In this document: piece by piece, positions 47,684 to 48,270 of the stretch
How positions within the stretch are numbered: position 1 is the first letter of the stretch
Layout: every line of letters starts with the position of its first letter
Assembly: GCA_033345195.1 (NCBI GenBank)
Contig: JAWPOE010000008.1
Location: forward strand, 112,940-176,939
From: Alphaproteobacteria bacterium
Lineage (GTDB): Bacteria; Pseudomonadota; Alphaproteobacteria; Rs-D84
DNA length: 64,000 bases
Reading direction: 5' to 3'
Notes under the pieces: model-generated
Databases searched by the model: none
What the model saw: the letters and a program-made list of their open reading frames with translations, nothing else
Told to the model about the DNA's origin: nothing
Translations under genes and position numbers: made by a program

Positions 47684-47699
47684 AAACACCACAAGGGGG

Positions 47700-47814
47700 T
47701 GTTTTTATTAAGGCCCGCCTATGCCAAGGCTACGGCGAGGCACTGAATTTTCTAAACAAAAATACCGCAAAAGCGGTATTTTTAGAAAATTCGTGGTTGC
47801 GGGGAATGGATTTG
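47700..47814. repeat. Direct repeat copy A (115 bp): downstream flank plus the 3' 21 nt of tRNA-fMet, without the rest of the tRNA
   Basis: Near-identical to 47952..48066. Contains the terminator ATACCGCaaaaGCGGTAT and ends with tggttgcggggaatggatttg (3' end of tRNA-fMet, minus orientation). Confidence 0.85.
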
Positions 47815-47951
47815 GCTGCGCACCAACTGCGCAAATCAACCTTTGGTTGACCGGCATACTGCCGTCTGCCTTTTGCTGGTTGTGAACCATCTTTGTTCAA
47901 TGGTTCAAATCCAACACAACACACGTTTAAATAAAAAATGCATCACAAGGA

Positions 47952-48066
47952 TGTTTTTATTAAGGCCCGCCTATGCCAAGGCTACGGCGAGGCACTGAAT
48001 TTTCTAAACAAAAATACCGCAAAAGCGGTATTTTTAGAAAATTCGTGGTTGCGGGGAATGGATTTG
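47952..48066. repeat. Direct repeat copy B (115 bp), contiguous with the intact tRNA-fMet
   Basis: See copy A. Confidence 0.85.
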
Positions 48067-48122
48067 AACCATTGACCTTCAGGTTATGAGCCTGACGAGC
48101 TACCGGGCTGCTCTACCCCGCG
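48046..48122 (-). tRNA. Initiator tRNA-fMet (CAT)
   Basis: Reverse complement CGCGGGGTAGAGCAGCCCGGTAGCTCGTCAGGCTCATAACCTGAAGGTCAATGGTTCAAATCCATTCCCCGCAACCA. Initiator features present: the C1/A72 mismatch, CAU anticodon, and strong similarity to E. coli tRNAfMet. Confidence 0.9.
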
Positions 48123-48270
48123 ATAAGGTGTGTGCATTATATAGGACTATTTATGTATAGTCAATAAAAAAATGTTTTTTCTGTTTTTTATGATGTTTTT
48201 CCTGGTCTGTCTTGAATTATCTAATTTTTGTTGCTAAGATTTGCAAAAGTATAAAATATAAGGGTTTGTC

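Follow-up and report, generated by a model that had tools for sequence, protein, structure and literature searches.

tRNA-echo units, structured non-coding repeats that follow tRNA genes in Candidatus Enterousia and related Alphaproteobacteria

Introduction

What does a piece of tRNA sequence stand for when it is repeated directly behind the tRNA gene that it copies? Such partial 3' ends are routinely taken as integrase footprints and used to delimit genomic islands, and this is how one was first read in a stretch of 64,000 nt of an alphaproteobacterial genome (Alphaproteobacteria bacterium, lineage Rs-D84; assembly GCA_033345195.1, contig JAWPOE010000008.1, positions 112,940–176,939), called the window here. 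Its tRNA-fMet gene is followed by a second copy of the last 21 nt of the gene within a 115-bp direct repeat, for which a preliminary description had proposed an attachment-site (attL/attR) scar of an excised or decayed island, or the footprint of a miniature element. The analysis reported here leads in another direction. The DNA between the repeats is one of many units of a common design, termed tRNA-echo units, which occur behind at least 23 tRNA types, carry their insert at a constant position, form arrays and nested forms, are patchy in their occupancy and fold better on the sense strand. The region is probably, though by no means certainly, one copy of a family of non-autonomous, RNA-folding elements that ride on tRNA transcription units; as regards function and mode of spread, the non-autonomous RNA-folding element is our best guess.

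The tRNA-fMet locus and its direct repeat

The tRNA-fMet gene (48046–48122; minus strand, as are all features of this locus unless stated otherwise) is intact, encodes its CCA and was identified by ARAGORN and by Rfam model RF00005 (64.3 bits); besides the CAT anticodon it shows the initiator features C1xA72 and three G-C pairs in the anticodon stem. A sigma-70-like promoter, TTGACT-17-TATAAT, lies in front of it (48136–48164; 11 of 12 matches to the consensus) and is the sole strong promoter-like site of the region in a consensus scan. The 3'-most 21 nt of the tRNA, CAAATCCATTCCCCGCAACCA, which run from the T-loop to the CCA, form the right-hand end of a perfect 115-bp direct repeat (47700–47814 and 47952–48066; repeat finder and pairwise alignment), as the preliminary description had recorded. 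The copy that includes the tRNA (copy B) consists of these 21 nt (48046–48066) and of the 94 nt that follow the CCA, here called module T (47952–48045), and is identical to the distal copy (copy A) at 115 of 115 positions; at 93% identity the repeat extends to 140 nt (47675–47814 and 47927–48066). A 34-nt GC-rich core of the repeat occurs at only two sites in the 64 kb, with a chance expectation of 0, and no dispersed further copies of the 115-bp repeat were found within the window. The earlier observation that no integrase is encoded nearby is likewise borne out in the neighbourhood of the tRNA.

The assembly was checked against short-read contigs of run SRR22345191 (Logan; L001 and L002), which encode proteins identical to those of the window and whose ends fall about 30 nt inside copy A (47729) and in the tRNA T-arm (about 48075). 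Breaks at these places are consistent with a true repeat and neither prove nor disprove the assembled order. Echo units in general are expected to fragment short-read assemblies at tRNA genes.

Anatomy and predicted fold of the fMet echo element

The echo element behind tRNA-fMet is 133 nt long (47794–47926), is matched by covariance model R1 with 155.9 bits and has a fold z-score of -3.3. Read in the direction of the tRNA, it opens with a G/U-rich leader (47914–47926) and a 5' arm (47897–47913) that is the exact reverse complement of tRNA positions 48–64, the T-arm; this inverted copy had been seen before and given as 16 nt, and it is in fact 17 nt long and 100% complementary to 48059–48075. 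It overlaps the P2 hairpin (47883–47906), in which 47900–47906 pairs with 47884–47890 around a loop at 47891–47899 and whose 3' strand (47883–47890) is the 5' strand of the T-stem in sense orientation followed by TTCA. A structured insert of 68 nt (47815–47882) then stands at the T-loop position, and the element closes with the echo core (47794–47814), an exact copy of tRNA positions 56–76 from T-loop to CCA. According to RNAalifold the insert contains helix A (47872–47876 with 47831–47835), hairpin B (47867–47870 with 47853–47856, with the conserved loop GACGGCAGUA at 47857–47866), hairpin C (47845–47850 with 47836–47841) and hairpin D (47817–47833). The last of these, the most variable part of the insert, is the palindrome formerly likened to a D-arm; it is real, although its letters are TGCGCA-N5-TGCGCA and not CTGCGC...GCGCAG.

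The sense halves that flank the insert both pair with the 5' arm (helices P1 and P2), so that the insert emerges from a helix built of T-arm sequence, in the place normally taken by the T-loop. The predicted fold of the unit is a three-way junction that leaves a tRNA-identical tail of 8–13 nt, ending in CCA, unpaired. A 5' arm is found in every echo family, with antisense matches of 4–17 nt, and has two pairing options, namely the sense halves of its own element or the 3' third of the tRNA across the terminator. In the fMet alignment the eight pairs of P2 are formed in 97% of cells and covary, and all eight covary across tRNA types as well; P1 is paired in the fMet set without covariation and covaries only across different tRNA types. 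An alternative T-stem between the sense half and the 3' core, which excludes P2, is 94% paired with two covarying pairs.

Several other readings of the segment were tried and rejected. An acceptor-like helix that would start from the G/U-rich leader is only 71% paired, and its duplex energies do not surpass those of shuffled and cross-paired controls. Inspection by eye for a small open reading frame (ORF) or tag peptide in the insert showed that reading frames are not kept between subtypes. The GAUGAG/GAAA motifs recall a hammerhead ribozyme, a reading that fails in its register, as there is no A15.1-U16.1 pair and the Rfam ribozyme models are silent. No tRNA or transfer-messenger RNA (tmRNA) model matches besides the true tRNA, so that a second decayed tRNA or a tmRNA piece was dismissed. 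Finally, the 3' copy does not look like the product of a reverse transcriptase stopped at the modified A58, given that the copies mostly include position 58 (range 56–60).

Conservation and covariation among relatives

With the adjoining DUF374 protein as query, 80 loci were collected from Candidatus Enterousia and related metagenome-assembled genomes of gut alphaproteobacteria (65–97% identity; individual loci carry L numbers). An echo element stands beside tRNA-fMet in about 32 of the 80 Candidatus Enterousia species. The 112-nt segment that lies between the repeats in the window is 75–99% conserved directly downstream of tRNA-fMet in many of these species, always followed by the 21-nt tRNA tail. 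As a rule the tRNA is succeeded, on its own strand, by a terminator spacer of 43 nt, then by the 112-nt segment and its 21-nt tail, and finally by a second terminator. A covariance model built from a 29-copy alignment recovered 36 copies in the 80 loci. In this alignment RNAalifold finds four helices with 24 pairs; 97% of the cells are paired compared to 26–43% in slid controls, 14 pairs are changed on both sides compared to 2–7, and the covariation score is 0.489 compared to about 0.075. All five pairs of helix A covary (GCAAA/UUUGC, AAACC/GGUUU, AAAUU/AAUUU, GGAUU/AAUCC). The element is also more conserved than its surroundings, with an identity of 83–92% in most species pairs whose DUF374 DNA is 77–82% identical and whose neighbouring, promoter-bearing intergenic DNA is 66–76% identical. 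The inter-repeat segment is a conserved, covarying structure under selection and not debris. Present as it is in many species and at many tRNA types, it does not bear out the earlier suggestion that it is the remnant of a decayed island.

The unit can be cleanly present or absent between identical flanks (L015 compared to L016), and tandem units were seen at tRNA-fMet in L079, L080 and L006. In L020 the T-stem of the tRNA is altered and the unit is unaltered: its 5' arm still matches the shadow copy within the unit, not the tRNA, which indicates that the internal fold is what is preserved and not pairing with the tRNA. The initiator T-stem itself exists in several alleles across L003–L082 (AATGG/CCATT, GTTGG/CCAAC, TGTGG/CCACA, AGTGG/CCACT and G.U hybrids), and the close relatives L015 and L020 differ by two full compensatory T-stem pairs; the 3' part of the tRNA may have been replaced by integrating elements. 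In L003 (positions 2285–5622), two echo units 3.1 kb apart stand on either side of genes for a DUF5677 protein and an outer-membrane protein of autotransporter type. There is no integrase between them, and behind the first unit lies a degenerate fragment of a unit of another type.

A search of Rfam 15, including its tmRNA, Y RNA and ribozyme models and those of RNAs associated with insertion sequences (IS), returned no family at the gathering threshold except tRNA. The best sub-threshold match was rsmX, with 27 bits against a threshold of 56, and permissive thresholds gave nothing for the echo element and likewise nothing for L080.

The same design at other tRNA genes

The second tRNA gene of the window, tRNA-Cys(GCA) (22272–22345, plus strand), is followed by a unit of 153 nt (22388–22540, plus strand; weak model match plus direct reading, z = -4.9). 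Over 22272–22583, the tRNA and a terminator are followed by an arm similar to the reversed T-arm, by CCGGTTCG, by a multi-hairpin insert of about 105 nt, by ATTCCGACCCAGGCCTCCA, which is the exact 19-nt tail of tRNA-Cys that closes the unit, and by the same terminator again. The insert has no sequence relation to the fMet insert, and the tRNA 3' end with its terminator forms a direct repeat of about 58 nt with 1 mismatch. Both tRNA genes of the window therefore carry a unit. Among the relatives, a second tRNA-Met in L046 and L051 carries units that share homology with the fMet element in their central domain and have arms matching that other tRNA, and at six fMet loci a different insert family sits in the same frame.

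Scanning of metagenome contigs with the 22-nt hairpin-B motif gave at least 120 loci. A tRNA on the same strand lies less than 700 nt upstream in 87 of 130 matches to the core motif, covering at least 23 anticodon types, and 50 of 81 distinct units end in the 3' end of their own upstream tRNA; in most of the matches that lack a tRNA upstream, a displaced partial tRNA and island DNA are found there instead. The point of interruption is constant: among 77 distinct units, 69 have a sense left half that runs as far as tRNA position 55–59 and 67 have a 3' copy that begins at 56–60, both with a mode of 58, and about 88% are interrupted at T-loop position 55–60. Several sequence-unrelated insert families, as well as nested inserts, share this one position, with insert lengths that range from 60 to 230 nt in the family (median of the 77 units, 75 nt). 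The same insert subfamily was found behind tRNA-Arg(ACG), His, Ser(GGA) and Pro(TGG), and the same tRNA type has different subfamilies in different genomes. A model search of the metagenome loci gave 102 copies (96 distinct), in whose alignment, which was fitted to the model so that pair counts lean towards structure, 88.6% of the cells are paired compared to 28–45% in slid controls and 27 of 31 pairs are changed on both sides. Every P1 and P2 pair covaries in this alignment because the arms change with the tRNA.

Multiple matches occur at different tRNAs on single contigs, and tandem arrays were found in L079, L080, L093, L108, L115 and L126. Among bystander tRNAs, which had played no part in the retrieval, 7 of 32 have a unit. 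One unit-bearing contig has an alphaproteobacterial tmRNA, and the GC content of the contigs is 0.31–0.57. The viral collection gave one match only, a tRNA-bearing IMG/VR contig (L203); in this contig, classed as viral, a tRNA-Thr(TGT) is directly followed by two echo units (11100–11560), the first without a preceding terminator. Two motif matches, in L139 (about 1316–1337) and L159 (about 888–909), fall within conserved coding sequence from an organism of higher GC content and were set aside as chance or unrelated 22-nt matches. In units of the second insert family in L051 (3160–3440) and in L066, downstream of tRNA-fMet, a terminal hairpin of about 25 nt, CCCGCAGGCATTTATGCCGAGGGAA, occurs twice around an extra hairpin of about 48 nt, a doubling that looks like nested insertion and local duplication.

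Strand preference and relation to transcription

Of 77 units, 54 fold more stably on the tRNA-sense strand than on the opposite one (p = 4e-6). A terminator oriented like the tRNA stands behind each unit, and the terminators of a pair diverge by compensatory changes. In 64 of 65 units the 3' third of the tRNA, the first terminator and the 5' arm fold as one long hairpin, with 22.5 pairs compared to 9.2 when the arm is shuffled, and the P2 loops are purine-rich and GNRA-like. Neither a consensus scan nor inspection by eye revealed a promoter ahead of the echo element on either strand. In the absence of such a promoter and with a terminator usually in between, any transcription of the units depends on read-through from the tRNA. 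The 145 ORFs that flank units fall into 118 Pfam families of an ordinary housekeeping type.

Origin of the 115-bp repeat

Echo units are bracketed throughout the family by two copies of the tRNA 3' end with its terminator, and the 115-bp repeat of the window is this flanking pair, probably homogenised in recent time. Module T holds a GC-rich hairpin and a terminator, in copy A (47700–47793) at 47713–47741 and 47758–47783, and in copy B at 47965–47993 and in a 48-nt extended hairpin (47997–48044) with the intrinsic terminator at its tip (48010–48035). At least seven further Enterousia loci have it in single copy and starting right after a CCA, either behind the element (L021, L025, L031, L037, L057) or behind the tRNA (L022, L043); L019 and L044 have weaker matches. 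The stem of its GC-rich hairpin shows compensatory changes between species. Two copies occur only in the window among the loci compared. The closest relatives, L003 (97% DUF374 identity) and L004, have the 43-nt spacer and no module T behind the tRNA, and L003 keeps the first 11 nt of the module behind the element. Behind the tRNA of the window, module T is fused to the right half of the 43-nt spacer terminator, with the junction between ...TTAATAAAAACA and TCCTTGTGATGCATTTTTT; comparison with L003, L009, L015 and others identifies 47933–47953 as the remnant of the spacer terminator with its U-run, whose stem is shortened from 7 bp in L003 (ATGCATC/GATGCAT) to 4 bp in the window (CATC/GATG).

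Most simply, module T may have been copied recently from its place after the element to one after the tRNA, by gene conversion or unequal exchange. The identical 21-nt core would have served as the anchor and similar terminator sequence as the site of resolution, with the remnant at 47933–47953 as the right-hand end of the conversion tract. This would explain both the perfect identity of the 115-bp copies and the difference between the hairpins outside them. The preliminary description had noticed that these outer hairpins (ACACC/GGTGT and CATC/GATG) differ and had taken this for compensatory ageing of one terminator in an old, maintained duplication. The difference is there; the ageing is not supported, seeing that the copies are identical, that L003 has the 43-nt spacer and that CATC/GATG is the truncated spacer terminator. 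The two hairpins appear to be different terminators and not two aged copies of one. The ACACC/GGTGT hairpin (47682–47706) is a two-way terminator, closing both the echo unit and the convergent 287-aa gene, which has its stop codon at 47681–47683.

Neighbouring genes and genuine islands

The two AT-rich genes upstream, orf604 and orf287 (604 and 287 aa), had been proposed as surviving cargo, a role that does not fit their position: both lie to the left of the two repeat copies, outside the pair. Homologues of orf604 with 30–53% identity occupy the same place in seven other loci, orf287 was found in this strain only, and the genes around them (rmlD/rmlB, an outer-membrane protein (OMP) gene, lpxK/lpxC) are conserved. 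The GC content is low across 44.9–47.7 kb, and the AT-rich segment between the OMP gene and the tRNA (44933–47683) varies among close relatives (L003, 464–2245; L004, 3918–5696), with orf604 homologues merely 52–53% identical in genomes whose rmlB is 100% identical. The segment looks like a hypervariable locus of polysaccharide or lipopolysaccharide (serotype) type and not like island cargo. In L002, VirB3/VirB4 type IV secretion genes lie upstream of the rml cluster. Elsewhere in the window, the cumulative GC skew has its minimum at about 26000–27000 and rises steadily thereafter, which could mark a replication origin or terminus.

Genuine integrative islands do use tRNA-fMet in other genomes (L013, L008, L017, L031, L039, L048, L057, L059, L068, L075 and L082), where they leave tRNA 3' copies of 37–48 nt several kb away. 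The island of L013 (5302–9856; 4.4 kb, 37-nt tRNA repeat) encodes a tyrosine integrase (PF00589 and PF13356), a Bro-N protein and an HNH fragment, and it is placed between the tRNA and a displaced echo unit. Integrase islands at tRNA-fMet are a separate phenomenon from echo units.

A model of the unit and the alternatives

How is a unit of this kind built, and how might it spread? From the CCA of the tRNA onward, it comprises a terminator module; a 5' arm antisense to the T-arm and often reaching into the 3' strand of the acceptor; a short purine-rich loop; the 5' strand of the T-stem in sense orientation with GGTTCRA; an insert of 60–230 nt at T-loop position 58 or so; the tRNA's own 3' end to the CCA; and the terminator again. 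Transcripts that start at the tRNA promoter and read through would include the unit as RNA, and the unit would be dispensable, multiplying locally by recombination between the flanking repeats of tRNA 3' end and terminator, while its insert modules would move between tRNA loci by a route directed to the T-loop. One may speculate that fold-back copying, with the palindromes of the terminator and the T-arm as turning points, would account for the zig-zag order of tRNA third, terminator, reversed third, loop and third.

A number of points weigh against a non-autonomous RNA-folding element. No mobilising enzyme was found, with integrases, transposases and reverse transcriptases accounting for none of the 25 most frequent Pfam families of the 145 flanking ORFs, and the matching of the arms to a new tRNA has no mechanism that explains it. 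Transcription of the units into RNA is deduced from sequence, and a good terminator usually stands between the tRNA and a unit that has no promoter of its own (only L203 lacks the intervening terminator); the covariation would equally fit a structure needed as single-stranded DNA. The patchy distribution is also compatible with an accessory host function. In addition, the metagenome loci were drawn by a motif from this very family, so that the counts are biased towards one insert family, and the gene-conversion account of the repeat draws on a comparison with few relatives.

A bolder form of the proposal, which we advance tentatively, is that echo units are a new class of element that carries the sense and antisense sequence of its target as RNA or single-stranded DNA, with the T-loop, universally conserved in tRNA genes, as docking point, and that would thus be either a mobile element, templated or guided and with no linked enzyme, or a general tRNA-companion RNA system. 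Such a companion system would, in gut alphaproteobacteria of reduced genome size, govern the maturation of individual tRNAs or shield their 3' ends.

Somewhat more doubtful is the idea that the unit is a non-coding RNA beneficial to the host and partnered with the tRNA, as a mimic of its 3' end or a cis regulator: a read-through transcript would switch between forms that sequester and release the tRNA, or a free NCCA tail would titrate a factor that reads 3' ends. Strong structural covariation and conservation above that of neighbouring DNA speak for such an RNA, as do the purine-rich, GNRA-like P2 loops, terminators kept by compensatory changes, the one-hairpin fold of 64 of 65 units and the sense-strand bias. 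It is harder to reconcile with a unit at only about a fifth to half of the tRNA loci, with differences between closely related species, and with unrelated insert families at one position whose arrays and nesting look like parasitic growth. The 5' arm of L020, which follows the shadow copy and not the changed tRNA, also speaks against it, and the acceptor-like helix that would complete the 3' end is unsupported.

Some integrases cross over in the T-loop of tRNA attachment sites. A miniature integrative element similar to a cis-mobilizable element (CIME), free of genes, bounded by attL and attR and moved in trans by such a tyrosine integrase, would account for direct repeats that run from the T-loop to the tRNA 3' end, for the precise presence or absence of units and for their tandem accretion. 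It would also suit the shadow 3' ends of L006, L020, L037 and L049, which carry another tRNA allele than the resident gene, and tRNA-fMet is a true integration hot spot, as the L013 island with its tyrosine integrase testifies. We nevertheless regard this explanation as unlikely. A family of this kind would have one att specificity, whereas the same insert family occurs at no fewer than 23 tRNA types with ends that match each of them; these tailored ends would call for many integrase specificities, failing which chimeric, dead tRNAs would result. The DNA next to the supposed crossover shows helix covariation of RNA type and not arm-type protein sites, the P2 inverted repeat, spaced by anything from 0 to 17 nt, does not resemble a recombinase core site, and the repeats of real islands measure 37–48 nt and not 17–21 nt, with no integrase enriched near the units. 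The earlier suggestion of a miniature non-autonomous element's footprint comes close to the echo-element reading preferred here, and it is the integrase-moved version that is disfavoured.

It is very improbable that the locus is a scar left by the decay or excision of an island that targeted the tRNA and had the 604-aa and 287-aa genes as its cargo. This reading could appeal to the geometry of the repeats, to the low GC content of 44.9–47.7 kb and to orf287, which is confined to this strain. The genes are nevertheless outside the repeats, with orf604 homologues in the same place near OMP and rml genes in seven loci. The attL/attR description was right about a short unit with direct repeats bearing the tRNA 3' end, and it falters on the composition of the repeat, which is not limited to a tRNA 3' segment, as att cores are, and joins 21 nt of tRNA to a 94-nt non-tRNA terminator module. 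Between the copies, where an integrase or cargo would lie, there are 137 bp, and in place of unconstrained remnant DNA these show covariation and conservation above the flanks, being under purifying selection and part of a large family.

Least probable of all is that there is no element, and that the arrangement stems from faulty assembly or from a tandem duplication of the tRNA and its terminator that is now decaying: short-read contigs with window-identical proteins do break at the repeat, and tandem initiator tRNA genes are common in bacteria, yet both junction types occur independently elsewhere (after the tRNA in L022 and L043, after the element in L021, L025 and L037), tRNA-Cys has the same layout, and only tRNA positions of about 48–58 and 56–76 are represented, with no similarity to positions 1–47 and with a covarying conservation unlike that of a pseudogene.

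On the preferred reading, that of a non-autonomous RNA-folding element, the signature commonly used to delimit islands marks here a small conserved fold that belongs to no catalogued RNA family, so that annotators would mis-call such units as island scars or tRNA fragments. The puzzle is how a non-coding unit of about 150 nt gains sense and antisense copies of whichever tRNA precedes it; its solution could reveal, for uncultured gut bacteria of reduced genome size, either a new way of targeting the T-loop or a new control of tRNA transcripts.

Comparison with known systems

In the literature searched, which covered Enterousia, tycheposons, structured RNAs downstream of tRNAs and miniature integrative elements, no account of units of this kind was found. 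CIMEs and the partial-tRNA remnants of islands (P4-like elements, tycheposons) resemble them in lying 3' of tRNAs, in repeats that start in the T-loop, in the lack of a recombinase, in arrays and in presence or absence between genomes. Echo units differ by the terminator within the repeat, the covarying interior, the antisense copy of the T-arm, the 23 or more tRNA types and the lack of a linked integrase. True islands at tRNA-fMet have the longer repeats of 37–48 nt and are inserted between the tRNA and the unit. The preprint on tycheposons (10.1101/2020.12.28.424599) describes partial tRNAs and degenerated elements, without the word 'hairpin' and without a structured unit of this type.

tRNA mimics such as the tRNA-like domain of tmRNA, the Y RNA YrlA (PMC4201824) and viral tRNA-like 3' ends share the T-stem, the UUCRA of the T-loop and the 3' strand of the acceptor to the NCCA, as well as a large domain inserted in a tRNA-like frame. 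Echo units have no supported acceptor stem, carry their insertion inside the T-loop, vary in sequence with the neighbouring tRNA and match no Rfam family. The 3' spacers of tRNA transcripts of the 3'ETS-leuZ type (ETS, external transcribed spacer) are also non-coding, lie directly downstream of a tRNA and could share its transcript, like the units; in the latter, a terminator usually comes first, and a large conserved fold repeats the tRNA 3' end. We know of no sponge-type target of echo units.

Closer in general character are the small palindromic repeats, that is, repetitive extragenic palindromes (REP) and bacterial interspersed mosaic elements (BIME), Rickettsia palindromic elements, miniature inverted-repeat transposable elements (MITEs) and palindromes derived from IS200/IS605, which are likewise non-coding, 100–250 nt long, rich in hairpins, multi-copy, patchy and given to nesting and arrays. 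Unlike MITEs, which have terminal inverted repeats and short target duplications, echo units end in a terminator and a tRNA 3' copy; their inverted repeat lies inside the unit, formed by the 5' arm and the sense halves, and the flanking duplication measures 58–140 nt. IS200/IS605 elements recognise a fixed target of 4–5 nt at their left flank and insert 3' of it without a duplication, with subterminal hairpins at both of their ends. The fixed insertion point behind GGTTCRA recalls this target: echo inserts always follow this motif and are stackable, while their ends pair with each other and form no separate end hairpins, and no TnpA was identified. Echo units stand apart from the small palindromic repeats in lacking terminal inverted repeats, short target duplications and an identified transposase, in lying only behind tRNAs and in having arms that are sense and antisense copies of the adjacent tRNA. 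They appear to be an undescribed family of the same broad kind, that of small, non-autonomous structured repeats.

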